From assembly GCA_963745235.1 (NCBI GenBank), contig CAVUXE010000099.1:128001-192000 (forward strand): DNA of 64,000 bases. Reading direction: 5' to 3'. This document shows, piece by piece, positions 1-43,824 of this stretch (position 1 is the first letter of the stretch; every line of letters starts with the position of its first letter). Under the pieces are notes generated by a model. That model worked only from the letters and a program-made list of their open reading frames with translations. It was not told the DNA's origin and made no database searches. This DNA is from an uncultured Spirochaetota bacterium. GTDB lineage: Bacteria; Spirochaetota; Spirochaetia; SZUA-6; Fen-1364. The position numbers and the translations under genes were made by a program.

Positions 1-195
1 CGCTTTTGCGAGCGGGAGAGGAATGATACCCTTTCCATCCACTGGATTGCCGAGGTTGACGACCAGTTGAGAAACCCGGTAGGTCAAAGCGAGAGTCCCG
101 GACCCGTCCTGATGGATGGTGAGGCGGCTGCCCACCCCGACGCATGAGCTGAGCAGCACAGCTGCAACGATGCACAGAAAACCGGCCTTCTTCAT
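1..195 (-). CDS. Lipoprotein, N-terminal part (runs off window edge)
   Basis: Not in ORF track. Manual translation MKKAGFLCIVAAVLLSSCVGVGSRLTIHQDGSGTLALTYRVSQ... gives a signal peptide with lipobox LLSS-C, open to position 1. Confidence 0.75.
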   Translation of the reverse strand, partial: MKKAGFLCIVAAVLLSSCVGVGSRLTIHQDGSGTLALTYRVSQLVVNLGNPVDGKGIIPLPLAKA

Positions 196-784: not shown

Positions 785-2341
785 CTATTCCCACTCGATT
801 GTCGCGGGCGGTTTGCTGGAAATGTCGTAGACGACGCGCCCGATGTCGGGGACCCTGTTCGTGATGATGGAGGAGATCTCCAGAAGGTCCTGCATGGGGA
901 GTGGGTACACGTCTGCCGTGATGGCGTCCAGCGAAGCGACAGCCCGGAGCGCAAGCACGTGGCCGTACCTGCGCATGTCTCCGGAGACTCCAACGGACCG
1001 CACGGGAAGCAGGACACAGAATGCCTGCCAGATCTTGTCGTAGAATCCCCGGCTTCGAAGCTCAGAAATGAACAAGGCGTCTGCTTTTCGAAGCAGCTCG
1101 CACTTTTCCGGGGTGACCTCACCGATGATTCTCACCGCGAGCCCCGGGCCGGGAAACGGATGGCGCTTCACGACAGCGGGGGGCAGGCCAAGGGCAGTCC
1201 CGAGCTCACGGACTTCGTCCTTGTACAACGAGGAAAGGGGCTCAATGATCAGCCCCTCTGCCCTCTTTGCCTCCACCAGCGGGGAGTGCACATTGTGGTG
1301 AGACTTGATCACCTTGGCTTTGTTTCCCACGCCCTTGCCTGATTCCACGAGGTCCGTGTACAACGTGCCCTGGGCAAGGAACGACCGGCTGATCCCCAGC
1401 GAATCGATCTCGGTTTCCTGGACGTTCATGAAGAGGTCTCCGATGACGCGCCGCTTCTCCTCGGGGTCCGTCACCCCCGAAAGACGAGAAAAGAACCTTT
1501 GTGAGGCATCGATCATGTGGAGATGCCGGGCTCCCAGGCCGGCGAGAGTCCGGGCCACCTCTTCCGACTCTCCCTCACGCATGAGACCGGTGTCGACGTA
1601 CATGAGGTGGACGCGCTCCGGGTCGAGGCTTCGCAGGAGAAGCCCTGCAACGACGCAGGAATCCACCCCTCCCGAAATGAGGAGCACCACGTCCCTTTCC
1701 CCGACTTTCTGTTTCAGCAGCTCCTTTTCCCGGCGCAGGTACGATTCGATGCTCCACTCGGGCCGCGCGCGGCAGATGTCCAGCGCAAATGCCGCAAGAA
1801 TGTCCTGTCCGTGCTCGCAGTGGCTTGCCTCCGGATGAAACTGCACGCCCCACATCCGCCGCTCCTCGTTCACAAAAGCAGCGGCAAGGCCATTCTCCGA
1901 GCGCCCGATCACGCGAAATCCGGTTGGAGCTTCGGTGACCGAGTCTCCGTGGCTCATCCACGACTCAAAAGAGCCTCCGGGGATCCGAGAAAAAAGGTCG
2001 GTCTTCTCTTCCAGGATTATCCTCGCTCTGCCGTACTCCCGGGTCCCCAGTGACGCGACCTCTCCGCCGTGATCCGCGCTCATGCTCTGGAATCCGTAGC
2101 AGATCCCGAGCAGGGGAAGGCCTTTTTCGTAGATTCGTTTGTCCGCCCGCGGAGCCCCGGGTTCGTAGACCGAGTAAGGAGATCCCGAGAGGATGATCCC
2201 CTTCACGCGGGTAAGATCAATTCCGTCCGTGCGCGAGTCTCCGGGAACGATCTCGCTGTAGACGCCGAGCTGCCTGATCCTGCGTCCGATGAGCTGTGTG
2301 CTCTGGCTCCCAAAGTCGAGAATCAGGATCGTGTCCATCAA
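785..2341 (-). CDS. guaA: GMP synthase (glutamine-hydrolysing)
   Basis: LDFGSQ, GICYG, QFHPE, SGGVDS, IKSHHNV, HPFPGPGLA, KPPATIEWE motifs. Confidence 0.98.
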   Translation of the reverse strand: MMDTILILDFGSQSTQLIGRRIRQLGVYSEIVPGDSRTDGIDLTRVKGIILSGSPYSVYEPGAPRADKRIYEKGLPLLGICYGFQSMSADHGGEVASLGTREYGRARIILEEKTDLFSRIPGGSFESWMSHGDSVTEAPTGFRVIGRSENGLAAAFVNEERRMWGVQFHPEASHCEHGQDILAAFALDICRARPEWSIESYLRREKELLKQKVGERDVVLLISGGVDSCVVAGLLLRSLDPERVHLMYVDTGLMREGESEEVARTLAGLGARHLHMIDASQRFFSRLSGVTDPEEKRRVIGDLFMNVQETEIDSLGISRSFLAQGTLYTDLVESGKGVGNKAKVIKSHHNVHSPLVEAKRAEGLIIEPLSSLYKDEVRELGTALGLPPAVVKRHPFPGPGLAVRIIGEVTPEKCELLRKADALFISELRSRGFYDKIWQAFCVLLPVRSVGVSGDMRRYGHVLALRAVASLDAITADVYPLPMQDLLEISSIITNRVPDIGRVVYDISSKPPATIEWE

Positions 2342-3777
2342 CCCGCAAGCTCCTTTCTCATCCGCGCGCAGACACCTGCATACTTTTCCGCCAGCGCCCG
2401 CGCCTGCTCCGCCGCCATTCCCTTGTAGTTTGCCGGGTCACTGAAGAATGCATCCGCATCCTGGCCCCGGACCTGGGAAAGCTGGCGAGTCAGAGTGTCC
2501 CACACTGCCCTGTCCTGGCGAAGCCCCTGCCTGAGGCGCTCTCCAGACTGCTCGCTCCTGACAGTCGCCCTTCGCACGGCTTCATGCGCATCCGGGTGCC
2601 CGCCGAGGGCCATCAGAATATAAACGGGCTCCGAGAAGATGCCGTCACCTGCCCGGGCAAGGTTCTCAGCCATGCGGGCGCGATCCACTCCCAGGGACCG
2701 GACCACCGCCCCCATTCGGGCGGCAGCGGAAGCCAGGCCGGCCAGGTACTCCGCGATGAAGCGAGACGAGGCGGAATTGGTGAGGTCCCGCTGGTGCTCC
2801 GAGATCTGGTCCATGAAGAACGTGACGACGCGAGGGCAGAACTCCTTCCAGAGGCTCTTCACGTGCTCCGAGTTCCATGGGTTGCGCTTCTGCGGCATGG
2901 TCGAAGAGCCGACCTGGGTCGCGGTGAACTCCTCCCTGACCTCCCCGATCTCTGACCTCTGCAGGTGGCGCAGGTCGTCTGCGAGGTTGGCCATGATTCC
3001 AAACGCGGTATTCAGCTCCAGAAGGAGCTCCAGGAGGTATTCCGGTTCAACCAGCTGCGTGGAGTGTTCTGATGCCTGCAGCCCGAGGAGCTCCAGGAAA
3101 TCCTTCTCCAGGGACCTCGGGTCTCCCACCACCAGGGAGGTGGCATTGTATGCGCCGACCGCTCCCGCGAGCTTGCCCCGCAGGTCTGCTCCCTTTTTCT
3201 CGATCCTCTCGATGCTCTTGCCCAGACGCGACACGTACTCCGCCATTGCAAACCCGAACGTGATAGGCACGGCGTGCTGGCCGTGTGTTCGACCGACCTG
3301 GGGGGTATCCGCCTCATCCCGCGCCAGGCGGACAAGGCCCTCTTCCAGGTCGAGCAGGAGCGGGAGAATGATCCCCCGAACGGCCTCGCGGTAGCGAAGT
3401 GCGGAGGCCGTATCAAGGATGTCGGCGGAGGTCGCTCCCAGGTGCACGTACGGCTGCACCTCGGGCGGAAGATGACGCTTCATGACATTCACGAGGGCGC
3501 GGATATTGTGATGAGTCTTCTCTTCCTCCTGGTAGACTTCTCCGGGCGAAATGGCCTCAACCGCTACGTCCAGTTGGCGGCCGCCCTCCTCCGTCCAGGT
3601 GCGGCCCTTCAGGCGTGACAGCAGCGTCTTCAGGAGCGCGAGCTCCACGCGAAGACACGAGCGGACAGATGCCTCCTCGCTCAGAGATGCAGAGAGTCGT
3701 TTGAAGAGATCAGGATCTGAAAGAGAATATCTGTGGTCCAGCGGTGACAGGTTCTCGAAAATGTTCCGAGGTTCCAT
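2338..3777 (-). CDS. purB: Adenylosuccinate lyase
   Basis: SPLDHRY, HLGATS, GRTHGQHA, GSSTMPQKRNP signature; 4-bp overlap with guaA. Confidence 0.95.
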   Translation of the reverse strand: MEPRNIFENLSPLDHRYSLSDPDLFKRLSASLSEEASVRSCLRVELALLKTLLSRLKGRTWTEEGGRQLDVAVEAISPGEVYQEEEKTHHNIRALVNVMKRHLPPEVQPYVHLGATSADILDTASALRYREAVRGIILPLLLDLEEGLVRLARDEADTPQVGRTHGQHAVPITFGFAMAEYVSRLGKSIERIEKKGADLRGKLAGAVGAYNATSLVVGDPRSLEKDFLELLGLQASEHSTQLVEPEYLLELLLELNTAFGIMANLADDLRHLQRSEIGEVREEFTATQVGSSTMPQKRNPWNSEHVKSLWKEFCPRVVTFFMDQISEHQRDLTNSASSRFIAEYLAGLASAAARMGAVVRSLGVDRARMAENLARAGDGIFSEPVYILMALGGHPDAHEAVRRATVRSEQSGERLRQGLRQDRAVWDTLTRQLSQVRGQDADAFFSDPANYKGMAAEQARALAEKYAGVCARMRKELAG

Positions 3778-7862: not shown

Positions 7863-7966
7863 AGCAACCGGCGGGCCGTTCGGGAGCCTTTGCGGACGGG
7901 CATGAAAAACGGCCGAGCGTCAGCCCCGGCCTGTTCTATTTCGGCTCGGCATCGCCTCTGGGCCGC

Positions 7967-10611
7967 CTACTTCCCGTTTCTCTCGATATTCAGCTGCGCG
8001 ATTGCCAGCTTGGAGAGGGGCACCTGGTAGGGCGAGCAGGAAACGTAGTCCAGTCCGGCCTCCATGCAGAACCTGATGTTCTCCGGGATGGCCCCATGCT
8101 CTCCGCAGAGCCCGACCTCCAGGTCCGGCCGCGTCATCTTGCCGCGCTTGACCGCCGTCGCAATCAGCTCCTTCACCTGCGGATTGAGGAGCTGGAAAGG
8201 GTTGCCTTCCAGAAGGTCGAACTGCGTGTAGTCAGGCATGAAGGAGTTGAAGTCGTCCCGCGAGAGTCCGATGGTCGTCTGGGTCAGGTCGTTCGTCCCG
8301 AAGGAGAAGAACTGCGCGTAATGCGCAAGATCTCCCGCCCCAAGAGCCGCGGCGGGCAACTCCACCATGGTGCCGATCTTGTAGGGAACGGTCCGTGCCT
8401 TGAAGCTTTCCCGCACTTCCCGCTCCACGTCCACGAGGCCGCGGATGTGCTTGCCCTCGATCTTCTTGCCGTAGATGATGAGCTTCAGCTCGCTCTCGTT
8501 CATGATGATGGGAATCATGATCTCAGGATCGACCTTGACTCCTTCCTTGCGGAGAGTGTAGACGGCCTCGAAGATCGCGCGCACCTGCATCTCGTAGATC
8601 TCCGGATATGACACCGCGATACGGCAACCCCGGTGCCCCAGCATCGGGTTGAACTCGTGCAGCGCCTCGCTTCGCGCGCGGACTTCCTTCTCCGAAACCC
8701 GATTGGCCCCGGTTTTCCCGGCGTTGAGGTAGTGCATGAACTTGTCGAGCTCCTGATCGTTGTGAGGCAGGAACTCGTGCAACGGGGCATCGAGCAGCCG
8801 GATGATGACCGGGTAGTCCTCCATGATCTTGAACAGCTTGTAAAAGTCCGTTTTCTGCATGGGCAGGAGCTTTGCCAGGGCCTTCCTGCGGTCCTCCACC
8901 GAGTCGGAAAGGACCATCTCTCGGAACACGTTGATCCGCTTCTCCTCGAAGAACATGTGCTCCGTGCGCACCAGCCCGATTCCATGCGCTCCGAACTTTC
9001 GGGCAAGCGCCGCGTCCCGGGGCTTGTCGGAGTTGGCCCGGACGGTGAAGTGGCCAACGAACTTGTCCACGAGCTTCAGGAAGTCAAGCATGCCCGGATT
9101 CCTCGGGGTCCGGCTCGATCAGCTCCGCCTTCCCCAGGTAGAGGGACGGCGCGCCGTAGAAGGGAACGTTGAGAGTGATGTAGTCCCCCTCCTTGATGGT
9201 ATGGCTGCCGATGGTCGCGCTGGTGTCCCTTGATCTTCATTTCCGGCTTCACCAGGGAAACCTTTCCGTACTGCCGGGCGACAACCGAGGCGTGCGCGGA
9301 GTATCCGCCCTCAGAGGAGAGCACTCCCGTGGCCACCTCAATGGCTTTCACGTCCTCCGCAAATGACGCCGGGAGACACAGGATCATCTTGGTGTCCGTG
9401 CCCTTCTGCTGCGCAAGCTTGTGCGCATCCAGGAGCCTTTCCGTGTTGAAGTAGATTCTTCCGATGGCGGCGCCCGGCGCCCCGTGATTCCGCCCGTGAG
9501 GGCGGTCAGCCCCTTCACCGAGGTGTAGTCGATGATGGGGTGGAGGATCTCGTTGAGCTGCCCCGGCTTGATCTTCTTCACGACGTACGCATCATCCACG
9601 ATCTTCCGCCCGTGCAGGTCCAGGAGGAGCCGAATGTCCGCCTGCGTGGACTTTGCCATCACGGATCTCTGGTCGATCAGCCACAGGCGCTTGTTTTCCA
9701 CGGTGAACCGTATGGAACGGGTCTCCTTGAAGTGGTCTTCCACCTTGCGGGCGATCTTCTCCAGCTCATCATGGTAGTTCTTGGCAACCTTGGAGATGTC
9801 CGCTCCGCTGGCGCCAATGGCGTTGAACTTGTTCTGGAAGTATTCCCCCTGGATCTCCTTGTTCCCGGTGACGATGTTGCGCGTAAAGAACTGGCCGTAG
9901 AATGCGTCCTTGCCGTAGTTGCCGTACACCATGGGCTGGATGATCAGCGCGGTGTCCTGCTGGTTCTGATCGTTGATGGCCAGGAGGTGGCTGATCCTCT
10001 TCAGGGCGATCTCCAGCTGGTCGAACGGGTCCTTGAAGAAACCCGGCGGGAAGCATGGCTTTGTAGCGCTCGAGGAACTCCTTGCGCTTTTTGGCGTCCA
10101 TGTCCGAGTCCAGACCCTTGCCGAGGTCCTTGATGGCCTGCTTGATTGTCTTGACGTCTTTCTCTTTCTCCTCCAGCTCGGCGATGGCCAGCTCGATCTC
10201 CAGGTTCCCCATGGTCAGGAACTGCTGCTCGTGCCAGCCGAAGTTCTCCCCCACGTAGCGAACGAACCCGGGAAGCGTCTTGTCGGTCAGGCCGAAATTG
10301 TGCAGCGTGGGATACTGGGCAATCACGAGGTTGGGGCTGATGACGATCTTCACCAGCATCGGGTTGTCGGCGTCTCCGAACGTCTTTCCCGTGAGCTTCG
10401 CCAGCTTGTCGAACCAGGGCCGCAGCGCGGCCCAGATATCGAAATCCTCCAGGTGCATGGCCACATCCGCATCGATGAGGAAACCGGGGAGGATGGGCAG
10501 GTCCAGGTCAGCCAGCTCCATGGCCAGCCGTCCGCGGATCCCGATACGATCCAGGATCTGCGGCTTCAGGTTTGCTTCCCCTTTTGCAAAGAAGTGGATG
10601 TTCTTCTTCAT
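7967..10611 (-). CDS. ppdK: Pyruvate phosphate dikinase-like PEP-utilising protein with degenerate ATP-grasp domain (several frameshifts)
   Basis: GIGLVRTEHMFF, IRLLDAPLHEFLP, NPMLGHRGCR, GTNDLTQ, LCGEHG; His domain GGYSAHASVVAR; pieces 9769-10611, 9384-9932, 9076-9387, 7967-9091. Confidence 0.9.
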
Positions 10612-10631
10612 GCTTCAACCTTCCCTTGTGG

Positions 10632-11714
10632 CTAGAACAGGTTCAGGACAGCGCCGACCTGTCCCTTGAGGAATGCTTCGAACATGTGGCTGGCGCCCTG
10701 CTTGAGGTAGCGCTGGAGCTTGGCCACGTCCTTGATGTCGTCCCCCGCAATGGCGATCATGATTGCGCTTCCGTGCTTGACCTTCCCCCATTTGAAAAGC
10801 GTGTTGATGTCGTGGATGCGCTCACCCTCGTAGAAGACGTAGACGTCCAGGCCCGGGTACTTGGTCGTGTAACTCTGGATGATCTTCTTCCACGCCTCGA
10901 CGTTTCCGTTATGGAAAAGCTCGTTCGTCACGGGGATGGAGTACATGGGTGTCATCCGTTTGGGAGCCGTGGTAGCGGCCGCAACGACGGGCCTGGCAGC
11001 CACCGGCGCCGCGGCGGCGGCGGTCTGTTGCGCAACGTAGGACTGGAGCGCCGGCGGCATGACGGGGGACGCTGCCGCGGCGGCGGCGGCCGCAAGGTCC
11101 ACCTTCGGTCTGCGCCCGCGCGGCTTCGGACCCCGAGTCGGTGCGGGGGCGGGAAGCATGGGAACCACTTTCTTCAGGGTGAAACTGCCCTTGGTGAATG
11201 CTGAAGGCGTCTTGATCTTCGACCCCTGGAGAATGGACAGGAGCAGGTTGATGCCTTCCTGATATTTCGGGTCACTGTCTGTATCCTGGAAAGCGCCGGC
11301 GAATATCGTTATCAGCTCATTTTTCTTGAGGCCACGGACGCTTTCCCAATGGGCGCGGTTTTTTGGATTGATGGTCATGACGCCCAGCTCTGGATGAAAA
11401 TAGGTCACCACGAGGTCCAGGGCCCGCCATTTTCCGACCTCCGCGGCAAGATAGTCAAAGTTTTCGAAGTTCTCCGTGAGATTGTAGGACCTGCATACGT
11501 AGCCGTACTTGTCCGCCAGGATGGCGCTTACGGCCGGCAGCACCTGGTCGGGCTCGATGGATTTCTCCACGAGGCACGCGCTGATGATCTCCGCCAGGTT
11601 TGTTTTTCTCTCGAAATCCGCAATGACCCGCATGATGAACTTGAAATGGGACAGTGAGCGGTTGAAGCCGGCCCTTGTGCTCAGCTCGTCAAACGCATGG
11701 AGTTGTTCTGCCAT
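10632..11714 (-). CDS. Hypothetical protein: unknown N-domain, Ala/Pro linker, C-terminal HPr-like domain
   Basis: Intact 360-aa ORF with SD-like GAAGGG; C-terminus YSIPVTNELFHNGN...GKVKHGSAIMIAIAGDD follows the HPr pattern (domain call is inference). Confidence 0.85.
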   Translation of the reverse strand: MAEQLHAFDELSTRAGFNRSLSHFKFIMRVIADFERKTNLAEIISACLVEKSIEPDQVLPAVSAILADKYGYVCRSYNLTENFENFDYLAAEVGKWRALDLVVTYFHPELGVMTINPKNRAHWESVRGLKKNELITIFAGAFQDTDSDPKYQEGINLLLSILQGSKIKTPSAFTKGSFTLKKVVPMLPAPAPTRGPKPRGRRPKVDLAAAAAAAASPVMPPALQSYVAQQTAAAAAPVAARPVVAAATTAPKRMTPMYSIPVTNELFHNGNVEAWKKIIQSYTTKYPGLDVYVFYEGERIHDINTLFKWGKVKHGSAIMIAIAGDDIKDVAKLQRYLKQGASHMFEAFLKGQVGAVLNLF

Positions 11715-11730
11715 TTGATTTTCCCTTCGC

Positions 11731-11752
11731 TGTCACGGCGGTCCCCGTGACA
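11731..11752. promoter_or_regulatory. Stem-loop just upstream of the RBS of the HPr-like gene
   Basis: TGTCACGG-6nt-CCGTGACA perfect 8-bp inverted repeat. Confidence 0.5.
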
Positions 11753-11763
11753 CGCACCGCCGT

Positions 11764-11798
11764 AAATGAAAATGGTGACCCCCGGAGGGGTCACCATT
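11764..11798 (-). terminator. Rho-independent terminator/attenuator after cfpA
   Basis: Perfect 12-bp stem AATGGTGACCCC-4nt-GGGGTCACCATT followed by TTCATTT on the minus strand. Confidence 0.75.
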
Positions 11799-11813
11799 CA
11801 ATTCCCCGTTTGC

Positions 11814-13832
11814 TCAGATCTCTCTCAGACCGACGTCCCCGCCCCTGCGCGGACGGCCCCTCCTGCCCGGCTTGCGGCCGCGCCGCGGAGCGACGTCCAC
11901 GACTCCCTGGGATGCCGTCTTGGCATCAGGTCCTGGAACGTTCAGCATATCAAGGTAGTCAGTCTTTTTGCCTTCACCTGCCGCTGCGGCAGTCTCCTCC
12001 GGCTGCGCCGCGAAGGACTGCGCAATGTCAGCGCGCACCGTGGAGCGCCTGCGGGAGAACGACGCGAATGCGGCGTCCTGGAACCCCTTGGATACGCCGT
12101 AGAGGAACTCGTTGAGCACGTTGGCCATGCCGTCCAGCGTCGCCTTCTTCCTCTTGATGGACGTGATGTTCACGTCGAGGAGCAGGCCCGGCTGGATGTG
12201 GTACGGGTTGATCATGTACTCGAACTTGAGGAAGTTGCCTTCCAGGAAAGCAAGCCGCTCCTCCAGGACTCTTCGCTGGATGGGATAACGGAAGCCGTAG
12301 AGCTTCTGCAGCTTGTCCTTCATCAGGATGAGGCGCTTCTTTACCTCGTCCTTCTCCGCGATGTAAGTCCTGTTCATCCGTTCGACGTCGGTATCACCGG
12401 CCCGCACGAACGTTACTTCGCTCCAGCTCTTCTCGATGTCCTCGTAGAGGGGATCCCCCGTCTTTGCCTTGATCCGCCTCTTGATCTTCCCGCGCATCTT
12501 CTTGGCAAGGTCGTTGAAGTCTACAACGCCCTTCAGGAACTTGGAGTCCTCATACACCATTTCGAGGATGTCCCATGCATGCTGCATTTCCACCTCGAAG
12601 CTCTTGGCCTGCACGTCGTACGACTTGCGCTCTTCCAGGAGCTGCGCCTGGTCGTAGTATTTCAGGCGGATTGCGTAGCGCTCATCAGGCAGGTGAGCTT
12701 CATCCGTGTCCTCATACTCGCGAAGGACCAGCTCGCGCGCGTTCTTGAGGTTTTCAACGTGCTGGTAGCCCATCTTGGAGGTGTCCAGGATGGAGGTGAT
12801 GGAGTTGATGGCAGTGTTGAACCCGCGGTTCCTGATGTTCTCCAGGTCGACGATTCGCTTCAGGTTCTCACGGATATTCACCGCGTCATACTCTTCCGGG
12901 TCGATCTCCGCGCGCAGGCCCTCGATCTTGTCCATGAGGCTCTTGGCAAAGTATGAGTACCTCTTGGACTTGGGGTCGTCCTTGTCGTCCGAGGTGAACT
13001 TCTCAACCCTCTTCATCTTCTCGAAGAGGATCTCTCCGTCGTTCAGCTCTTCCCGGCCCTCATCGATGACCTGATCCTTGAGCTTCTCGATCTCCTTGTC
13101 GATGAGGTCCATGATGTTCTTGGAGATGAGGTCCTTGATCAGGAACTCCACCGTGACCTGGTAGTGGAAGATGGGGCTGATGAGCTCCGAGTCCAGGATG
13201 TTGACCGAGAGCTTCACGTCCGTGACGGTCTTGGGCTTGTAGGCGCTGTCCTTGAAGGAGCACTTCACGATGGAGTACGCGTTCTCACCGCTGATGAACG
13301 CGCCGACATCCGTCTTCTGGCGCAGCAGGGAGTTGGTGAGGTTCTCCAGGTCGTTGACGCCGCGCTGGATGTGGCCCTGCAGGTGTCCGTACATGTTGAC
13401 GATGGATTTCTCGATCTCACCCGTGTTGAACTTGTCGATGCCGCCGATCTGGTCCAGCATGGCCGCGATCTCCTTCGGGGTGTAGCGGGCGAGGGACTTC
13501 ATCTCTTCCTTGTCGATGAAGTTCCTCACCTTCTTCACCATCTCGTCTTCCGAGGTGACCATGAAGCGGTTGAACATGTTCTGATAGTTCTGGTTGAAGT
13601 AGTTGTAGAGCTTCTCCTTGAAGCCACCCATGACGTCGAGCTTCTCGGTGACTTCCTTGGGCAGCTTGGAGGTGATATGATTCATCACCTTGTCGACTTC
13701 TTCGCTCATGAGCAGGTCGACTTCCGCCTGCTGATCCCGGAACTCCTGCGCGAGCGAGTTCCTGGAACCGACGGCGCTCGGCTTTTCCGGATGGAACACA
13801 TTCGGGCTTTTCGGAAGGTCAATAGCAGCCAT
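11814..13832 (-). CDS. cfpA: Cytoplasmic filament protein A
   Basis: N-terminus [25 protein letters not shown] matches treponemal CfpA as I recall it; 672 aa, charged and helical; strongly biased codons; SD AAGGAG. Confidence 0.93.
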
Positions 13833-13864: not shown

Positions 13865-13957
13865 AGTAGACCATAAAAGAACCACTCTGGCAAGCACTTT
13901 TTTCCAGTGCCACCAATTTCTCTCTTCCATTTTATAGAATTATAGTGCATCCTACAA
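13865..13957 (-). promoter_or_regulatory. Two tandem sigma70-like promoters for cfpA
   Basis: TTGTAG-17nt-TAAAAT (13957-13929) and TTGCCA-17nt-TCTACT (13893-13865) in an AT-rich divergent spacer. Confidence 0.6.
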
Positions 13958-13985
13958 GCGATTTCAGGCAGGAACAGGAGGCAGC

Positions 13986-15529
13986 ATGAGTATTCGCAGA
14001 AGCCTTCCCGCGGCTTTGGTGGTGTGCCTCATTCTGGCGTCCCCTCTGCTTGCCGACACGCGGACGCAGAACATCGACATCATGATCGCCCTCGACAAGT
14101 CACTTTCCATGGAACATAAGATCGCCGCTGTCAAGGATTGGGTCAACTCATATCTGATCGACCAGGTGGTCATCCCGGGAGACTTCCTCGTCATCGTGGC
14201 GTTCTACGGGAAGGCGGACGTCATCGTGTCACAGGTCATCAAGGATGACGCCGACAGAGCGGCAGTGAAGAAGATCATTTCCGGGATTAGAGGGAATGGA
14301 AGGTTCACAGATATTGGCAACGCCCTGGATGTTTTGAAAGCGCAGATCGCGGAGAAGGAGAAGCGACGGTAGAGACAAGTACGTCCTCCTCCTGACGGAC
14401 GGGATCCAGGAAGCGCCGCCAACGAGCAAGTACTACTCCACGGACGGAAAGTTCAACCACGAGTTCCTCGCCAACACGAAGACCATCCAGGAGAAAGGCT
14501 GGAAGGTCATGATACTGGGGATCGGAACAGAGACCGCCGCAAAGGACCTGGCGACAACGGTCTCCGGTTCCTACACCGAGATCACCGGCAAGGTGAGCCG
14601 GGGGGCCCTCACCCAGTCCGCCGGCGGCCTGTTCGGCGCCGTGGCGCTCAAGGGCGGGGTCCAGGTGGCGCCCGTGGGCCCTGACGGGAGCAGCTCCCTT
14701 GCCTTCACGTTGAAGCCCTCGCTGCAGGGAGACACAAGCATCACGATCAACAGGATAGATGCCCGAATCGGGAACGCCCCTCCGTCCCCTGTGCTCTCCA
14801 CGCCCATGACCATTGCGGTCAAGAAAGGCGCTGATCAGGCGGCCAAGGTGGCGGTAAGGTTCCCTGCGGGCCTGCCCGGCAGGCTCCACCAAGGGCACGC
14901 TTTCATTTTCCTTCCCTCCCGGCCAGGGCTTCAGCCCTTCGGATGTCGAAGTGTCCATCCCTGTGAAAGGTTGGGCTGAAAACAACGAGATCCCGCTTGG
15001 CGCCGCCCTGGTCCTGGTAATCATCGTGATCGTCGCCCTGGTCCTTCTGCTCCGCAGGGTGTCAACGGGAGGAGCACTGTCCTTCGTCGTTCTGGTGGAC
15101 GACTCTCCTCTCAGCGAGGCTCCGGTGAGCCTGGCCTCGGGGCGCGAGCTTTTCCTGAATGAGCTGGAAGGATCTTTCAGTCTCGTCCCCAGGCGGAATG
15201 CCCGTTCACTCGCCCGATTCTTCGTCAAGGACAAGAAGCTCGGCATGGGCGTCCTGAAAACGGACAGGTTCCCGAAGCTGGCCGACGTGCCCGGGGACAT
15301 CCGGGGGGAATCATTTGTCCTGAAGGCGGAGGACGGAAGAAAGCTTGACCTGGAGATACAGGGCAAGTCCGCTGCCGGGGCAGCGCGGACAGGCGATATC
15401 CCCGCCCGGGAAGGCCGGTCCGCGGAGACTGCCTCCAAGCCAGCGCCCGAGCCCGCAGAACGCCCGGCGGCGAAACGAACCCCCCGGGCAACGGCGCCCG
15501 CGGCCAGGCCCAGGAAGAGGGCGAAGTAG
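13986..15529 (+). CDS. Secreted vWA-domain membrane protein (frameshifts near 14370 and 14880-14950)
   Basis: Signal peptide; MIDAS DKSLS, TDIG, LLTDG; TM GAALVLVIIVIVALVLLL; basic tail. Confidence 0.8.
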
Positions 15530-17739: not shown

Positions 17740-19257
17740 ACAAGCTACTGCCTCTCGGGCTCCTGGCCGCCTGCGCGCTGCTCCTGGCGGGCTGTCAGCG
17801 CTCCGGCAACGGCAGGGTCGTCATTGTTCCGAAGGTGCCCGCGGATGCGGCGCGCGGCACCGCGCAGGCGGCTCCCTCGGGCATGCTGCTGGCCCCTGTC
17901 ATGCCTCAGCCGCGAATTACCATCGACCCTCGGGACACCGTCCTCCAGGTGATCAACGCCGCCTTGCGCAAAGGCACCCAGGAGGAGCAGCAGGTCATTG
18001 CCGTGAAACGGATGGATGAGGTCGACTCCCCCGTGCGGCTGCTCGTGGTCGACGTGGACCCTGAACGGGGCACGTACTATTTCCAGAGCTGGGAGTCTCC
18101 CACGAACGCTACCGACAACAGGATCTTCAGCCTGGCGGTGAAGGACCTTATCGGAGACCACGACGTGCAGATCGAGGCGAGCGGCATGAACAAGGACGGC
18201 AAGCTCACTCTGGACATCTTCCGCCGCGGCCAGGATCCCCACGGGACCGAGCTGGTCTATGTGCCCGTCTGCCAGATTGTCGCCGACGACATACACGTGG
18301 AAGAGTCGGACCGGCCTGACACCTACACGATGGACCAGAAAAACGGTGACAGCTTCCCGATCGACACGTTCGTTCGTGACCCGGATTCCGCAGGACGTCA
18401 TGGACCTCCTCAAGATCTCCTATCAATGGGTGCCAAAAGAGGGCCGGTACGTGCCAGGCTCTCCTGAGAAGGTCCCGGGAGAAAAAACTGCCCAGGCGCA
18501 GCTCAGCAAGCTCTTCAGCGACTTGACGCCCAGCCCGTTCGAGGACTTCCTCGCAGGATCGTGGATAGAGACGCCGGCTGACGGCGCTCGAACGGGTCCG
18601 AAGCTCACTCCCGCAGAGATCTCTTTCGACCCCAGATCCAGGGAGATCGTGCTTTCAAGCGGTGATACCGCGGAGGTCTATTCCTGGCAGGTCACTGCGC
18701 GGACCTTGTACAACAGCGCCCGTCTGGTCGGAAACAACGAGACGGTCCCTCAGATCAGCCGCACCTTTGAGATAACCGCCCTGTCGACGGTCACCCTCTC
18801 GATAACGGTGGTCGGGGATGACTCGGCGGACAGGGCCACGGTCAGCACCTACTCCCGGGTCTCCGATCAGGCTCAGACCGCGCCGGGCCGGATCCAGGGC
18901 GCCCCGGCCGCTCACGAGCTCCCGACGCTGGCGGGGCAATATTCAGACTCGAAGGGCATTTCCGTCGACTTCCAGTATCCGCGGATGCTCTGGAAGGAAT
19001 CCGGACGGCAGAGGGCGGCGGAGTACGTGCTCTTTCGCCTGGCGGGCAGATTCATCCTGAGCGTTCGCTTCCTCGGAGACAACGACGCCCCAGAAGAGGA
19101 TCGATCATGGGTGGCAGATTTCAGTGAAAGCAGGAATCCTGCGCGGATTTTGCGCACCCTCACTCTCGCTCCCGCCCAGTTGACGGTGCGAGGCTACGAC
19201 GATGCGGTGGGGGACACGATCTCACTCGAGCAGGAGATTACTCTTCGGCCTCGATAG
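17736..19257 (+). CDS. Lipoprotein, pallilysin-related adhesin-like (frameshift near 18390)
   Basis: MNKLL...LLLAG-C lipobox; EEQQVIAVK, DLIGDH..IEASGMN..LTLDIFR resemble spirochaete pallilysin-related proteins; ATGA overlap with nrnA. Confidence 0.65.
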
Positions 19258-25188: not shown

Positions 25189-25647
25189 CTATTTGCCCGC
25201 CTCCTCCTTGTCCTTTGCTTTTTCTTTCTTCTTTTCCTTCAGGAGGGAAGAAAAGGCCTCTTCCGTCTCCGCGCCGAAAGACTCTTCAATGATCTTGCGC
25301 GCCTCGTCGGACAATCCGGAGGTGATTGTGACCCTTCCCTCCGTAACGACCCCCGGCTCCATGGTGAGCTTCGGTGTGGAGATGTTGCCGAGCACTTTCC
25401 CGGTGTGGAGCAGGCTGACCTCTTCAGAGGCGGTGATGTTGCCGATCAGGGTCCCCGCAACCGTCACCCGCCGGGCAACGATGTCGGTCTTCACCTTCCC
25501 CGTTGGACCCACGACGAGCTGGTCATCAGTCCGGATGTCGCCCTGGAACTTTCCTTCTATCAGAATGGAGCCGTTCACGTAAAAGCGACCGTTGAAGACG
25601 GATCCCTCTCCAATGATGCAGTTGCTGTTCTCATTCTTATTCGGCAT
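25189..25647 (-). CDS. Bactofilin (polymer-forming cytoskeletal protein)
   Basis: IIGEGSVFNG..IEGKFQGDI..VVGPTGKVK..VAGTLIGNI..GKVLGNI beta-helix; SD AAGGAG. Confidence 0.9.
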   Translation of the reverse strand: MPNKNENSNCIIGEGSVFNGRFYVNGSILIEGKFQGDIRTDDQLVVGPTGKVKTDIVARRVTVAGTLIGNITASEEVSLLHTGKVLGNISTPKLTMEPGVVTEGRVTITSGLSDEARKIIEESFGAETEEAFSSLLKEKKKEKAKDKEEAGK

Positions 25648-25718
25648 GCGGTCTCCTTGCCCACCTGGTTTCGCCTGCGCCTGATCCGACCGGGCGCCTC
25701 CGGGCCGTGCAAAAGATA

Positions 25719-27390
25719 TCATTGATCCCGCTGGGCTTCAAGTTTCCGCAGCTCCAATCCGGGCTCCAGCAGGTGCGGATCCAGCACGCGGGCGCGAAGA
25801 AAGGCATCGCGAGCGCCCGGGATGTCCCCCGTTGCAAGCAGGCATCTTCCCTTCAGCGTCTGGATTCGCGCCTGCACCTGGCGCCCTGCCGAGGCGCTTG
25901 CGGCGAGGGACACCCCGGCGGAAGACCCTGCTTCCGTCTCAGCGTTGCCGAGCTGCGCGAGGGCTTCCCGCGGATGCCCCGCGCGCAGCAGCAGGACAGC
26001 GAGGTCGTACCGGTACTTTCCGCCGCCGTCCTGGTTCGCAGCCTGGCTCAAGAGCCCCGCCGCCCGGTCCTCTTTCCCCTGCACGGCCTCCACAAGCCCG
26101 TGGATCGCAAGCCCGTCCGCGTCCTGCCCTCCCTGCGCAATTTCGTGCTGGTGGATGGCGATGCCGGCGCTTTCCCAATCGTGGGAGGTGACCAGCGCTG
26201 AAATCAAGGTCATGTACACTTTCTGGTCCGAGGGCAGACGGTCGAACAGCTTCCAAAGCGCTGCGCGGTACGCCTGCGGGGACAATCCGGGCGCCGCGAG
26301 AGCAAGCCGCAGAAGTGCGGCCTCTGCGTCGTCAGGCCTTTCCGCAACCAGCGCGTCCAGGAGTGAAAGCGCCGCGGCAGGGTTCCCCTGGCCTGCCTCC
26401 AGGCGCGCCGTGGCCAGCACGAGCTCGCGGGAACCGGGAAAAACAGCCCTCCCCTGCGCAAGAATGTCTCTGGCCAGAGACGGAGTTCCTTGCGTTTCGG
26501 CCAGGAGCGCGAGGTCTGCATATGGTGTCCAGGAAATCCTGGGATCCAACCTGATTGCCGCGTGGAGGGCATCCCCGTAGTCACTGCTCCTCCCCATGGC
26601 ATGGTAGCAGTCTGCCTGCAGCAGAGCGATATCCGCCCTCGGACCGCGGCGCGACTGGAGCCTGGTAAGCCTGGCGACCGCGGTCTGGAAATCCCCGGCA
26701 TCATAGGCAATCAGTGAGGCCGGCTCGTCGAACGCGCTGTCCTGCAGTGCGGTGGCGGCGATCTCCCGCGCGCTCGCGAGGTCACCGTTCGACAGTGACA
26801 GGAGCGCTGCGTCCAGACCGAGGCGCTTGTCGTCCACGCTCCGCGCCGCCTGCACGAAGTCCGACGCCTGCCGCGAGGTTTCCAGTTTGACGAGGTCCCT
26901 GGTGAGACTGTCCGAACCGAGCCAGCTGCCCCCTTTCCTGAGAAGTATCTCGCCGCGCACCAGCTCTCCGTTCCCCGCGGGCAGCCCCTTGCCGGGCAAC
27001 GGCCTCTGCGTCGGAGAGCCGCCCCGTCCGAAGCCATGAGTAGGCGGCCACGAGGCGAATAGCGGGGCTCGAGGAGAGGGAAATCTGGGCGCGGTCGCAC
27101 ATCACGGCCAGAAGGCCGAAGTCCCCTCCTTCCCGGCACAGCGCGTAGGCCCGTTTGAAGATGCGAAGCGCATCCCTTTCTCCGCGGGGGAAAGGCCGTA
27201 TTGCCAGCAGCTCCGCTCGCGCGGTGGAAAGGTATCCTCCCGAAAGTGCGGCATCTATGACTGCGAGCCGTGATGTGATATCCGGAGGCGGAAAAACGAT
27301 CGGAAGAACAAGGAAGTACCCACCCGCGATGATGACGCAGGAGCAAGCGATGATTGCTGCAACCAGGACCAAGGTCCGCCGCAGGCGCAT
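25719..27390 (-). CDS. Membrane-anchored TPR protein (frameshift near 26995)
   Basis: N-terminal TM plus Ala/Leu-rich TPR helices across ORFs 26782-27390 and 25719-26999. Confidence 0.7.
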
Positions 27391-33099: not shown

Positions 33100-33582
33100 T
33101 CAGGACTTGTTGTAGATCACGTCGATGGCAGGCTCTTTGACCACAAGGACCGAGCATTTTGCATTTCGCACGATCTCCCTGCGCTGCCTGCTCAGCGCGT
33201 CACGGAAGCCCTTGCTCTCCTCGAAACCGCCAAGAAGGATGATGTCAGCGCCGGCCTCATCAGCGGCCTCGACAACCTCCGTGGAAATGGCGCCGCGGCG
33301 CAGGACTTTCTCCATCTCCACCCCTTTCTTCGCCGCAAGGTCCTGCACGTAGTTCAGGTACCTGTGACCGTTCTCTTCGAGGCTCTTCTCGTAATCCGTG
33401 CTCTCCTCCTCCACGAAGATCTTCGAGAGAAGGAGCTCGCGGAGCGTGGCCGTGTCCACCACGTACACCCCGACCAGGCGCAGGCGATACAACCTCGCCA
33501 TGATGATCCCGTACTTTGCCGCGTTGATGGAGGCTTCCGACCCGCTGACTGCGACGACAATTGTCTGGATCAGTGACTTCAT
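33100..33582 (-). CDS. Universal stress protein
   Basis: IVVAVSGSEAS..AA, ADIILLG, IVRNAKCSVLVVK. Confidence 0.9.
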   Translation of the reverse strand: MKSLIQTIVVAVSGSEASINAAKYGIIMARLYRLRLVGVYVVDTATLRELLLSKIFVEEESTDYEKSLEENGHRYLNYVQDLAAKKGVEMEKVLRRGAISTEVVEAADEAGADIILLGGFEESKGFRDALSRQRREIVRNAKCSVLVVKEPAIDVIYNKS

Positions 33583-34208
33583 ACTCTATCCCCCAGGAGC
33601 CGCGACTTGAGGATCTTCTGCACAAAAAAGACTTCGCGCTCCCGCTCCTCAAGAACATCCTCAATGAACTTCCTGGTCTCCAGGACGTCCGGGATCACGA
33701 TCTTCTCCAGGGCGTTGACGCGCCTCTGGGTCCTTCGCACTTCCTTTGCCAGGCGCCACACCATGGTGCGGATCTCTGCCATCCTCGCGACGAGCTTCAG
33801 GAGCTCGAAGAACTCCACCATCGTCCTGTCGCACGTCGCCTGCGTGTTCATGAAAGAGTACTTCAAAGCCATCCGCGGGGCCTGCACATCGATGGTGGGC
33901 AGCGGAATGCCCATCAGGCGGCTTTGCTTCTCCTTCACGACGTAGTCGAAGGAGATCCCCGAGCTCACCTCGCGGGCGGACTCCCGGCCCAGGCCGACGA
34001 TCATCCTTTTCAGGGCTCCGTATGCCGACTCCACGCGCTTGTCCAGGTCCCGCTCCAGGAGCTTTACCTCCTCCACCATGCGCATCAGCTCCATGATGAG
34101 GATCTCCCTCTTCTGCTCCAGCAGCTCGAAGCCTTCCCGGGCAATTGCCAGCTGTTGCCGGACTGCGAAAAGGTTCGACTTTGTGGGCGGGACGTCGTAG
34201 CGCGCCAT
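33579..34208 (-). CDS. atpD: V/A-type ATP synthase subunit D
   Basis: PTKSNL, G.ELLEQKR, TQRRVNALEKIVIP, LEERERE. Confidence 0.95.
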   Translation of the reverse strand: MARYDVPPTKSNLFAVRQQLAIAREGFELLEQKREILIMELMRMVEEVKLLERDLDKRVESAYGALKRMIVGLGRESAREVSSGISFDYVVKEKQSRLMGIPLPTIDVQAPRMALKYSFMNTQATCDRTMVEFFELLKLVARMAEIRTMVWRLAKEVRRTQRRVNALEKIVIPDVLETRKFIEDVLEEREREVFFVQKILKSRLLGDRV

Positions 34209-37379: not shown

Positions 37380-37382
37380 CTT

Positions 37383-38003: not shown

Positions 38004-38048
38004 CCCTGCTGCGCCGCTCCGCGCGTGCCGGGCGCACCTCTTCCATCG

Positions 38049-38354
38049 CTACACATGAATCCCTACCGCGTCACGGATGGAATCGATGAGGCTCCGCCGA
38101 TCAGGCACGTGGCCGCCGATCCCCGGGACCTCCACGATCAGCGGATACGACCCGTTCATCTGCCAATCCATCACTTCGCGGGCCAGGAAAGACGACACCT
38201 GTTCCGTCAGGATGAGGACCCGCGCCTTCCCTTCTTCCGTCACGCTCGAAAAGGCTTCCCGGGCTTCCTCTTCCGTGCGGGCCACGCTCCCGGGGACTCC
38301 GACAAACCGGAAGCCGATGACCACCTCTTCATCGCCGATTACGTGGAACTCCAC
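38049..38354 (-). CDS. atpF: V/A-type ATP synthase subunit F
   Basis: VIGDEEVVIGFRFVGV, PLIVEVP, IRDAVGI. Confidence 0.92.
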   Translation of the reverse strand: MEFHVIGDEEVVIGFRFVGVPGSVARTEEEAREAFSSVTEEGKARVLILTEQVSSFLAREVMDWQMNGSYPLIVEVPGIGGHVPDRRSLIDSIRDAVGIHV

Positions 38355-38366
38355 GCCTCGAACCGC

Positions 38367-42587: not shown

Positions 42588-42588
42588 C

Positions 42589-43819: not shown

Positions 43820-43824
43820 ACGGC

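Follow-up and report, generated by a model that had tools for sequence, protein, structure and literature searches.

A conserved cfpA-linked gene module in spirochaetes and a possible PEP-driven phosphorelay associated with the cytoplasmic filament

The window analyzed here is a stretch of 64,000 nt from an uncultured Spirochaetota bacterium (GenBank assembly GCA_963745235.1, contig CAVUXE010000099.1, positions 128,001 to 192,000). It contains three consecutive genes on the (−) strand, namely cfpA, a TP0747-family gene (gene 2), and a PPDK paralogue (gene 3), whose features are collected in Table 1. An original prediction made from the sequence had described three co-oriented and closely spaced genes, the first of them cfpA, and both statements hold: the intergenic gaps are 99 bp (cfpA/gene 2) and 20 bp (gene 2/gene 3), and gene 1 matches the CfpA equivalog profile over its full length (NF040882, 1166 bits vs a cut-off of 500, profile positions 1 to 604 of 605). 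Instead of the predicted tandem promoters, we found a single sigma-70-like site upstream of cfpA, and the evidence for it is weak because two such sites occur in the scanned 6.6 kb vs 1.6 expected by chance. As for the proposed similar high-expression codon bias, GC3 is 0.84–0.88 in cfpA and gene 3, among the highest values in the window, and an ordinary 0.78 in gene 2. An EIIA(Ntr)-like gene (42111–42587) lies 30 kb from the module.

Table 1. Coordinates of the module, its signals, and the gene 3 indels in the window
Feature	Position	Strand	Basis or remark
cfpA, cytoplasmic filament protein A, 672 aa, Arg/Gly-rich C-terminal tail	11814..13832	−	NF040882
Gene 2, TP0747-family protein, 360 aa	10632..11714	−	Alignment and structure models; homologues with PF27497 TP_0747_N
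Gene 3, PPDK paralogue, ~880 codons	7967..10611	−	TIGR01828 match; four ORFs in the window
Sigma-70-like promoter site CTGAAA-17-TATAAT, upstream of cfpA	13939..13967	−	10/12 matches; weak
Terminator-like hairpin and T run, 36 bp past the gene 3 stop	7911..7931	−	7 pairs (6 G-C), then GTTTTT
Gene 2 HPr-fold domain 1 (predicted), residues 72–165	11220..11501	−	Predicted model; HPr chains at ranks 1–4
Gene 2 low-complexity basic linker, residues 184–248	10971..11165	−	pLDDT < 50; length and sequence vary among orthologues
Gene 2 HPr-fold domain 2 (predicted), residues 255–343, nearly invariant phylum-wide	10686..10952	−	Model pLDDT 91.2
His268 codon of gene 2, motif NELFHNGNVEAWK, residue preceding C-domain helix 1	10911..10913	−	Alignments and model
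Catalytic His codon of gene 3, motif GGYSAHASVVAR (= His455 of C. symbiosum PPDK)	9292..9294	−	Alignment; His in 37/37 orthologues
Indel 1, window +1 base	10038	.	Base left out in contigs of X1, X3, X4
Indel 2, window −1 base, coding-strand G run	9479	.	C inserted behind 9479 in X1, X3, X4
Indel 3, window +1 base	9227	.	Base absent from X4 (single contig of depth 3)
Indel 4, window +1 base	9093	.	Base left out in X1, X2

Gene 3 had been treated as a single gene; its copy in the window is split into four ORFs (9769–10611, 9384–9932, 9076–9387, and 7967–9091) by four 1-base indels at G runs. Independent contigs from four public runs of three studies, which match the window at about 95–99%, show exactly these four indel differences from it across gene 3, and 19 of 20 relatives carry a single gene 3 ORF of ~880 codons. 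Comparison of the window with a congener revealed 23 frame switches over 47 ORFs, with frameshifts in ~40% of the window's genes, including those for the V-ATPase A subunit and MutS2. Since the independent contigs are free of all four indels and frame switches occur window-wide, the gene 3 indels are assembly errors and do not mark a pseudogene. The contrary view, i.e., that gene 3 is decaying in this genome and the module is non-functional here, can point to four frameshifts within the 2.64 kb of gene 3 vs 19 in the remaining 57.1 kb of compared coding sequence (~0.9 expected). However, the gene 3 pieces contain no in-frame stops or further damage, their real parts are 88–100% identical to G015, all four sites lie at G runs, and comparable shifts affect other genes of the window; together with the intact contigs of the other runs, these observations make decay highly improbable.

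The order cfpA–gene 2–gene 3 was found at all 20 loci from within the same taxonomic order and at 18 of 20 loci from other Spirochaetota families, with cfpA present in 38 of the 40 fetched loci (55–96% identity) and absent from L131 and L138. A further 80 loci, lying partly on the same contigs as the 20 same-order loci, showed this order in 76 cases; the remaining four stop short of where cfpA could appear. Of 401 Spirochaetota genomes in a single sample, 148 contained cfpA, 145 gene 2, and 142 a gene-3-type N-domain (E ≤ 1e-66); our reading of the result tables places cfpA and gene 2 together in 144 genomes and cfpA in 141 of the 142 gene-3-type genomes, counts that overstate the case because the sampled genomes are related and not independent. 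Some genomes of families f30 and f54 have gene 2 and cfpA on separate contigs, and in f54 gene 3 is likewise unlinked. The anticipated conservation of synteny is thus borne out and runs deep, and the co-occurrence of the three families is near-perfect. The T. pallidum order TP0746–TP0748 cited in the prediction is likewise supported: TP0746 is named Ppdk in the available text of PMC10013896, PF27497 is TP_0747_N, and cfpA is TPANIC_0748 (PMC8525777). The matching order in T. denticola is TDE0842–0844, and the three genes are co-repressed there according to Table 5 of PMC3914990. We conclude that the three genes are one conserved module of CfpA-bearing spirochaetes.

Further analysis of gene 3 revealed that it is colinear with PPDK (TIGR01828; C. 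symbiosum 1DIK/1KBL) over three domains, namely ATP-grasp, swivel His, and PEP/pyruvate barrel. Its four pieces cover TIGR01828 positions 2–185, 240–391, 420–471, and 526–865 (~583 bits summed), and the alignment with 1dik spans residues 4–875 (E 7e-152). The swivel His motif GGYSAHASVVAR is present, with H455, R561, and R617 retained in 37/37 gene 3 orthologues, and E745, N768, D769, and C831 are identical in the 1dik alignment and invariant in the gene 3 alignment A3, which completes the PEP/pyruvate-site set and agrees with the original description of a PPDK homologue with intact PEP domain and phospho-His. In contrast to PPDK, gene 3 lacks the residues K22, R92, D321, E323, and Q335, which we take to be the nucleotide/Mg ligands of the PPDK ATP-grasp site. 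Specifically, K22 is replaced by R in all 37 orthologues, R92 by V (36) or I (1), E323 by R (30) or K (7), and Q335 by D (21), E (15), or N (1), and D321 is retained in a single one; the NAQGED loop of PPDK is conservedly replaced as well. All those residues are kept in 5/5 canonical PPDK paralogues from the same or related genomes. PPDK Lys22 is also discussed in PMC4844700, whose available text implicates it in ATP gamma-phosphate binding, citing Ye et al. 2001. The nucleotide site had been called eroded; its residues are indeed changed, but "eroded" is the wrong word, since the replacements are alike in 37/37 orthologues.

Profile scores set gene 3 apart from canonical PPDK as well. Against TIGR01828 (cut-off 843.45), gene-3-type proteins scored 668.1 bits (L029, positions 2–865) and 609.1 bits (L127) vs 1276.9 bits for the canonical L151, and against PPDK_N (cut-off 27) they scored 20.7 and 21.8 bits vs 171.7 bits for a canonical paralogue. 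Gene 3 thus has the three colinear domains of PPDK but falls below the equivalog score. Pfam matches of the gene 3 type were PEP-utilizers_C, PEP-utilizers, and a weak PPDK_N only, and the Enzyme I profile TIGR01417 (cut-off 341.7) matched the barrel only, at 104.4 bits. In a quick tree, 5 canonical and 39 gene-3-type proteins were split by a branch with an SH-aLRT of 100, i.e., gene 3 forms a clade apart from the canonical paralogues found alongside it within single genomes, and, unlike PPDK, its type is near-constantly linked to cfpA and gene 2. Gene 3 is probably the descendant of an old PPDK duplication. Its N-domain may bind another small substrate because it is conserved (mean column identity of 45%, 22 invariant columns). 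The complete genome G387 carries a 586-aa form of gene 3 that starts at about residue 320, has no ATP-grasp domain, consists of the His and PEP domains only, and overlaps the gene 2 stop.

One alternative is that gene 3 is a working dikinase whose ATP-grasp site was remodelled for a different phosphoryl acceptor or donor (some other nucleotide, or PPi/Pi in the absence of Mg), placed beside cfpA merely for co-expression or local supply, with gene 2 as an unrelated filament accessory. All three domains are retained in the 37 orthologues, the N-domain has invariant residues of its own, and TP0746 is treated as a glycolytic PPDK in the available text of PMC10013896. In addition, the cfpA-linked gene 3 is the sole PPDK-like gene of G142, a 1.1-Mb treponemal genome (99% complete) with gene coordinates that match the published ones of TP0746. 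The search of this genome for a pyruvate kinase gave none, which together with the single PPDK-like gene fits a metabolic role. However, G142 also encodes PEP carboxykinase and oxaloacetate decarboxylase beta and therefore has an alternative PEP-to-pyruvate route, and four of five checked genomes carrying gene 3 keep canonical PPDK and pyruvate kinase as well. The Mg/ATP ligands, moreover, are replaced in 37/37 orthologues by residues of opposite charge or none, the scores lie under the curated PPDK cut-offs, and the G387 form dispenses with the N-domain. Nor would a dikinase explain why gene 3 is linked near-perfectly to its two neighbors, and we regard this alternative as rather unlikely.

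Gene 2 is predicted to begin with N-terminal helices, followed by two HPr-fold domains (domains 1 and 2) on either side of a disordered, basic Ala/Pro linker. The original picture of an HPr-shaped C-domain with a His is supported by the model and by the invariant His268; domain 1, at residues 72–165, had been overlooked. For the domain 2 model, HPr chains occupied ranks 1–4 among 48,161 chains (Z 7.6–6.7; best rmsd 2.0 Å, 78/85 aligned), as they did for the domain 1 model (Z 8.2–6.9; best rmsd 2.2 Å, 80/85 aligned), with Z values of 7–8 lying in the range that the tool calls common for best matches and ferredoxin-like folds following at Z 6. Foldseek matched the predicted gene 2 model to HPr at E values of 0.0075–0.1 and TM of 0.5–0.68, and the open-faced beta-alpha-beta-beta-alpha-beta-alpha sandwich is seen in the predicted models of both domains. 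Searches of the local Pfam copy gave no match for gene 2, HPr (PF00381) included; a search of PDB sequences with profile A1 (E ≤ 10) yielded no HPr, profile A2 found no HPr-sized match among 1.84 billion representatives, and hhalign of A2 with the genome's own HPr returned a probability of 0.4%. The likeness of gene 2 to HPr is therefore one of predicted fold only, without sequence homology. The N-part of gene 2 corresponds to PF27497 (TP_0747_N, Pfam 38.1), a precomputed domain in 120/120 listed homologues and in 94–98% of the members of Atlas clusters holding gene 2 homologues.

Within domain 2, 34 of 113 columns are invariant (35 sequences), and the His of motif NELFHNGNVEAWK is conserved in 21/21, 35/35, and 80/80 sequences of three sets. 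In the C-domain model, a helix (22–38) begins one residue past His268, and model positions 8–96 align to HPr 1–85, so that His268 would occupy the place of HPr His15, a putative equivalence drawn from the secondary-structure register and the aligned ranges. By the same register, the places of Arg17 and Ser46, which are features of HPr, hold Gly270 and Asn304, both invariant. The His15-equivalent place of domain 1 (residue 85) is mostly Asp, with no conserved His.

CfpA filaments were recognized decades ago, and we are aware of no regulation or partners for them. A second alternative is that genes 2 and 3 encode structural parts of the filament ribbon, i.e., bridging or anchoring scaffolds derived from enzymes, without phosphotransfer and with PEP/pyruvate binding at most tuning assembly. 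Such a role is consistent with the tight adjacency to and co-occurrence with cfpA, and the conservation of the gene 2 C-domain, which is similar to that of CfpA, would suit a contact surface; Izard et al. in 2004 reportedly described, going by their title, "novel bridging and anchoring components" of treponemal filaments. However, the phospho-His and every PEP-site catalytic residue are invariant in gene 3, whereas dead enzymes usually lose such residues. The unlinked arrangements in f30 and f54 also speak against a structural role, as does the "single protein composition" ascribed to the filaments in the available text of PMC3398590, and we consider scaffolding unlikely. The same text attributes division, nucleoid/chromosome-condensation, and virulence defects to the loss of CfpA filaments in T. 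denticola. In the literature searched, CfpA is described by itself and the two genes downstream of cfpA are nowhere discussed as CfpA partners.

The adjacency of the trio in almost every filament-bearing spirochaete, together with the conserved residues and predicted folds, suggests a PEP-driven signalling pair tied to the filament. Our best reading, to which we assign a probability of about 40%, is that gene 3 and gene 2 form a dedicated PEP-to-His module associated with CfpA; the literature searched holds no description of one. Gene 3 should self-phosphorylate from PEP because both its PEP/pyruvate barrel and its swivelling domain with the phospho-His are retained, and to judge from its residues it would neither make nor use ATP/AMP in the PPDK manner, because its ATP-grasp domain is devoid of Mg-ATP-binding residues. 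Its phosphoryl group would be handed to, or sensed by, a protein partner, for which the constant neighbor, gene 2, is the best candidate, with the invariant C-domain His at the presumed His15 place as the putative acceptor. More speculatively, given the genetic linkage, the PEP/pyruvate state may act on the CfpA filament through gene 2. The entire chain, a private PTS-like relay on the spirochaete cytoskeleton that runs from a PPDK-derived "Enzyme I" to His268 of a tandem-HPr-fold protein and on to CfpA filament control, is put forward as a tentative proposal.

Comparison with the PTS bears on this reading from both sides. Gene 3 shares with Enzyme I the superfamily, the PEP-binding barrel, and the phospho-His domain, the G387 form is EI-like in size and make-up, and the adjoining gene 2 has a predicted HPr fold with a candidate His at the helix-1 N-cap. 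In contrast to Enzyme I, gene 3, like PPDK, lacks the N-terminal HPr-binding helical domain (no Pfam match to PF05524 in the gene 3 type), which counts against a phosphorelay. So do the fold-only likeness of gene 2 to HPr at Z values in the common range and the Gly and Asn at its Arg17 and Ser46 places. Gene 2 is no sequence relative of HPr and differs from it in having 360 aa and two HPr-fold domains; no EII partners lie near the module, and the source genome encodes a separate HPr and, probably, an Enzyme I at other loci, a further point against the relay. Rifampin phosphotransferase (RPH), a relative of PEPS and PPDK, offers a precedent for a swivel-His enzyme that phosphorylates a new target, as proposed for gene 3. 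The available text of PMC4844700 describes its swivel His domain as re-used for an acceptor other than pyruvate, reports an HPr-like subdomain within the acceptor-binding part, and notes that RPH members are "often misannotated as PEPS and PPDK." In RPH the ATP-grasp domain still works and the PEP barrel is gone, whereas gene 3 shows the reverse pattern.

The module names two constant candidate partners of CfpA and a concrete candidate chemistry, PEP to His to His. It also calls a standard annotation into question, as the cfpA-linked "PPDK" scores under the curated cut-offs for PPDK and is without the ATP/Mg ligands in all genomes examined. TP0746 is held to convert PEP, AMP, and PPi to pyruvate and ATP (available text of PMC10013896); if our reading is correct, the cfpA-adjacent "PPDK" of G142 would not be a dikinase, and models that let it derive ATP from PEP, AMP, and PPi would need revision. 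Together with rifampin phosphotransferase, gene 3 would then bring to two the cases in which swivel-His machinery was turned to a new acceptor. Finally, the state of the filament would track the PEP/pyruvate ratio, as would division and nucleoid organization through it, and the status of central carbon would be coupled to a bacterial cytoskeleton, which is rare.

The gene at the head of the module is cfpA, an identification by sequence that we consider certain, and it is followed by genes 2 and 3 (see table). All three lie on the (-) strand with gaps of 99 bp and 20 bp, in keeping with the original prediction of three co-oriented, closely spaced genes. The prediction had also placed them behind tandem promoters, which we found unsupported, since promoter-like sites are no more common in the scanned region than expected by chance (2 observed versus 1.6 expected). 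The similar codon bias claimed for the three genes holds for cfpA and gene 3, whose GC3 (0.84-0.88) is the highest among the genes of the window, but not for gene 2, whose GC3 (0.78) is ordinary. Elsewhere in the window, we noted a bactofilin gene, a V-type ATPase operon and an ORF with a pallilysin beta-barrel domain, the last in a spirochaete of free-living type.

Features of the cfpA module, its surroundings and compared loci (window coordinates unless a genome is named)
Feature	Position	Strand	Details
cfpA (gene 1)	11814-13832	-	672 aa; NF040882 1166 bits, cut-off 500
Gene 2	10632-11714	-	360 aa; 99-bp gap after cfpA
Gene 3, PPDK-like	7967-10611	-	20-bp gap after gene 2
ORFs of gene 3	9769-10611, 9384-9932, 9076-9387, 7967-9091		four ORFs
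Sigma-70-like site	13967-13939	-	upstream of cfpA
Terminator-like hairpin	7931-7911	-	36 bp beyond gene 3
Pallilysin beta-barrel domain ORF	18259-19257	+	PF18663, E 2e-9
Bactofilin gene	25189-25722	-	PF04519; 11 kb from cfpA
V-type ATPase operon	33579-41667	-	subunits D, B, A, I, C
PTS EIIA(Ntr)-type gene	42111-42587	-	beside SecG, TIM and PGK
SecG	42482-43048		
TIM	43064-43987		
PGK	43825-45006		
Canonical PPDK, own genome	G000:C58, ~117-121 kb	-	Lys/Ala/Pro-rich C-terminal tail
Short gene 3 (locus L131)	G387:C1:2406100-2413200, at 1494-3254	-	586 aa, no ATP-grasp domain
PEP-utilizers_C match	G142:C1:626252-627178	+	in a 711-aa open frame

The three-gene module is conserved. The order cfpA-gene 2-gene 3 was found at all 20 loci from eight families of the window's order, at 18 of 20 loci in other families of the phylum, and, by a pattern scan of genome contigs, at 76 of 80 further loci (some on the same contigs as the 20 loci of the window's order), the remaining four reaching a contig end before cfpA. 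The two exceptions among the loci from other families are a locus of genome G387 (L131), where gene 2 and a short gene 3 lie together with cfpA elsewhere, and one of genome G116 (L138), where gene 2 stands alone. In G387, the cfpA match lies at a distance of 160 kb, within a frame of 2159 aa that contains one stop. In some genomes of families f30 and f54, gene 2 and cfpA occupy separate contigs, and in f54 gene 3 is likewise unlinked. The small f54 genomes (G116, G126 and others; 1.3-1.9 Mb; loci L138, L155 and L156) carry all three genes on different contigs, and among gene-3 copies theirs have diverged most (E323 to M, R337 to D).

Co-occurrence was assessed in one sample of 401 Spirochaetota genomes searched three times, which revealed cfpA in 148, gene 2 in 145 and a gene-3-type N-domain in 142 (threshold E <= 1e-66; canonical PPDKs reach E >= 1e-63 with the same profile). 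A comparison of the tables by hand placed cfpA and gene 2 together in 144 genomes. Four genomes have cfpA without gene 2 (G378, G301, G318 and G440), one has gene 2 without cfpA (G088), and seven, most of them fragmented, have cfpA without a gene-3-type match (G378, G387, G118, G145, G318, G425 and G440). All three genes are absent from whole families, e.g., f27 (0/75 for cfpA and gene 2) and f12 (0/8). Because related, non-independent genomes are included, these counts are to be read as tight linkage and not as a statistic.

Both the synteny on which the original prediction depended and the Treponema gene order that it had invoked were thus borne out, the latter by published reports. Specifically, in Treponema denticola TDE0842 is cfpA, TDE0843 a conserved hypothetical gene and TDE0844 a 'pyruvate phosphate dikinase, putative', and the same co-culture conditions repressed all three together (PMC3914990, Table 5); TPANIC_0748 is cfpA (PMC8525777), and TP0746 is named Ppdk (885 aa) and treated as a glycolytic PPDK (PMC10013896). 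The N-terminal part of gene 2 corresponds to TP_0747_N in Pfam 38.1. In the literature searched, we found no paper on TP0747-type locus tags, and cfpA and the dikinase were mentioned together only as list entries, with no functional link discussed. The main text of a T. pallidum two-hybrid study (PMC2386257) names none of cfpA, TP0746 and TP0748; its supplementary interaction tables may contain pairs of relevance here. No description of genes 2 and 3 as CfpA partners or as a phosphorelay was found in the searchable literature, a scope that excludes older cfpA papers, tomography papers and supplementary tables.

In the window, gene 3 is split into four ORFs (see table), the real parts of which are colinear with positions 2-185, 240-391, 420-471 and 526-865 of TIGR01828, with all breaks falling at G runs. 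Of 20 relatives from the same order, 19 have gene 3 as a single ORF of 877-887 codons, and in the twentieth (L037) it is likewise broken. Comparison with the ORFs of a congener (G015) revealed 23 frame switches in 47 ORFs, four of them in gene 3 and 19 in the remaining 57.1 kb. The window's own genome (G000) is 85.7% complete in 104 contigs. We also compared positions 7900-10700 with independent contigs from four public soil and peat runs in three studies, for which the contig-covered parts are informative; relative to the window, these carry exactly four 1-base indels, at 10038, 9479, 9227 (backed by one contig at a depth of 3) and 9093, and the four breaks of gene 3 fall at these positions. 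We conclude that gene 3 is intact in nature and that its breaks in the window are an assembly error, because the contigs lack the four indels, nearly all relatives have a single ORF and frame errors occur throughout the window; on these same observations we reject the reading of gene 3 as a pseudogene. Further analyses of gene 3 therefore used intact orthologues. Other frame-broken genes in the window include those for the V-ATPase A subunit, a 7TM-HD receptor, MutS2 and a VWA protein, and 1-base frame errors fall, for example, at 35624-37379, 47548-49813, 57418-59752 and 13986-15526.

The intact orthologue L029, 96% identical to the last piece of the window's gene 3, aligns over residues 4-875 with Clostridium symbiosum PPDK (1dik; E 7e-152). 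Its PEP/pyruvate site is unchanged (R561, R617, E745, N768, D769 and C831), and the motif GGYSAHASVVAR holds the catalytic His. Since none of the catalytic residues at the PEP site varies, a structural, non-catalytic role for genes 2 and 3 is less likely. The ATP-grasp domain presents a different picture. The residues that we take to be nucleotide ligands from mutagenesis work on the C. symbiosum enzyme, whose numbering is used here, were examined in 37 cfpA-type orthologues and, for comparison, in the canonical PPDK of the window's own genome (contig C58). K22 is R in all 37; R92 is V in 36 and I in one; E323 is R in 30 and K in seven; Q335 is D in 21, E in 15 and N in one; D321 is kept in one; and the Gln of the NAQGED loop is F in 36 and Y in one, while H455, R561 and R617 are kept in 37/37. 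All five canonical paralogues (own genome, G082, G363, G132 and G350) keep every listed residue, and two unlinked copies in f54 belong to the gene-3 type. The assignment of Lys22 as a PPDK ligand is backed by a published report (PMC4844700).

By curated thresholds, the gene-3 family is not a PPDK: L029 and a second gene-3-type protein, L127, score 668 and 609 bits with TIGR01828 (cut-off 843; canonical L151, 1277) and 20.7 and 21.8 bits with Pfam PPDK_N (cut-off 27; L151, 171.7). In a quick maximum-likelihood tree, five canonical proteins are separated from 39 gene-3-type proteins by a branch with SH-aLRT 100, and families within the gene-3 clade group as in the taxonomy, which fits an old PPDK duplication followed by vertical descent. 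The N-domain also has 22 invariant columns of its own. Since the changes are uniform and these columns are invariant, the nucleotide domain is, on this comparison, re-purposed rather than decaying. The alignments show that gene 3 keeps the PEP-to-His half-site and has its nucleotide half-site replaced; the original prediction of a PPDK homologue with an intact PEP domain and phospho-His therefore stands, and the eroded nucleotide site that it described is instead replaced in a conserved way in 37/37 orthologues.

In G387, a complete genome on one contig, gene 3 begins at the equivalent of residue ~320, with its start overlapping the gene 2 stop, and comprises the His and PEP domains only. A dikinase needs its nucleotide domain in order to work, and this short gene 3 may be viewed as a natural experiment that points in the same direction as the re-purposed domain. 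The main rival explanation is that gene 3 is a dikinase with altered substrates. Enzyme I, canonical PPDK, the gene-3 type and pyruvate kinase are all present in four of five complete genomes checked. In G142 (1.1 Mb, one contig, 99% complete), the PPDK-like complement is the gene-3 type only, plus one other PEP-utilizer frame, and pyruvate kinase had no match; altered substrates would explain why this genome keeps only the gene-3-type copy. G142 carries PEP carboxykinase and oxaloacetate decarboxylase beta, and therefore another PEP-to-pyruvate route is available to it. Its gene-3-type gene, at 810.7-813.4 kb, agrees with the printed positions of TP0746 variants (PMC10013896), which suggests that G142 is a member of the T. 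pallidum group. The sole other PEP-utilizers_C match in this genome presumably marks an Enzyme I homologue.

The window's own genome encodes, besides the canonical PPDK, a probable Enzyme I (contig C35, split) and an HPr in which the usual motifs around His15 and Ser46 are present (contig C9). Together with the EIIA(Ntr)-type gene of the window, these two indicate that the organism has a regulatory-type PTS besides the module. Its canonical PPDK ends in a long histone-H1-like tail with AKKAPAKK-type repeats; CfpA has an Arg/Gly-rich end and gene 2 a basic linker, and such tails seem common in this organism.

None of the Pfam and NCBIfam models in our local libraries matched gene 2. In an alignment of 21 orthologues, the N-half is moderately conserved and is followed by a basic Ala/Pro linker that varies; the C-terminal ~107 residues are nearly invariant and include the motifs NELFHNGNVEAWK and LFKWGKVKHG. 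All sequences keep His268 (21/21, 35/35 and 80/80), and the other two His of this domain vary. AlphaFold models of the whole protein (pLDDT 74, residues 184-248 disordered) and of the C-domain alone (pLDDT 91.2) both contain beta-alpha-beta-beta-alpha-beta-alpha units. In an all-against-all structural comparison with 48,161 chains, HPr chains took ranks 1-4 for both domains, with best Z 8.2 for residues 72-165 (rmsd 2.2 A, 80/85 aligned) and 7.6 for the C-domain (rmsd 2.0 A, 78/85 aligned, HPr 1..85 matching model 8..96). Behind them, at Z ~6, came the phosphoglucosamine mutase C-domain, the aIF2-alpha C-domain and designed ferredoxins, and Foldseek returned mostly HPr (E 0.0075-0.1) with MoaE on top at 0.0058. 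The HPr-fold call is good, and is not proof of kinship, since Z values of 7-8 are common for best matches with this tool.

His268 (model residue 21) directly precedes helix 22-38, and with HPr helix limits that we assume, it is predicted to occupy the position of HPr His15, before helix 1. In the same register, the invariant Asn304 takes the place of Ser46 and Gly270 that of Arg17; at the His15 place, the N-domain has mostly Asp and no conserved His. Gene 2 is thus predicted to contain a pair of HPr folds, the second carrying an invariant His at what would be the HPr active site, which upholds the HPr-shaped C-domain of the original prediction and adds a domain (72-165) that it had overlooked. 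We found no sequence link to HPr: a gene 2 profile retrieved no HPr among PDB sequences, hhalign of the C-domain with the genome's own HPr gave a probability of 0.4%, and the C-domain profile had 132 matches and no HPr among 1.84 billion representatives. Almost all of these matches are TP0747-type proteins of 300-370 aa. A few stand-alone proteins of 108-129 aa, homologous to the C-domain alone, were also seen (P0216, 108 aa; P0221, P0223, P0227 and P0229), with the FHNGN His motif kept in P0216 and not in P0223. P0232, P0248, P0249 and P0252, which are repeat proteins and a methyltransferase, were rejected as low-complexity matches only.

The original observation is largely right, with corrections. 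Enzyme I with HPr is the closest working analogy for genes 3 and 2; gene 3 falls outside Enzyme I in sequence and domain make-up and gene 2 falls outside HPr in sequence. A complex prediction for gene 3 (880 aa) and the gene 2 C-domain (113 aa), run without controls, scored 0.03 and 0.01 against a mark of 0.32 and speaks neither for nor against binding. Rifampin phosphotransferase shows that the swivel His of the PPDK superfamily can be turned to new acceptors, and superfamily members are often misannotated as PEPS or PPDK (PMC4844700). We regard the phosphorelay interpretation as a well-founded, testable and unproven hypothesis, under which gene 3 would autophosphorylate from PEP and, once charged, would be unable to discharge to AMP/PPi; the phosphoryl group would pass to gene 2 or be read by it, and this would in turn act on CfpA.
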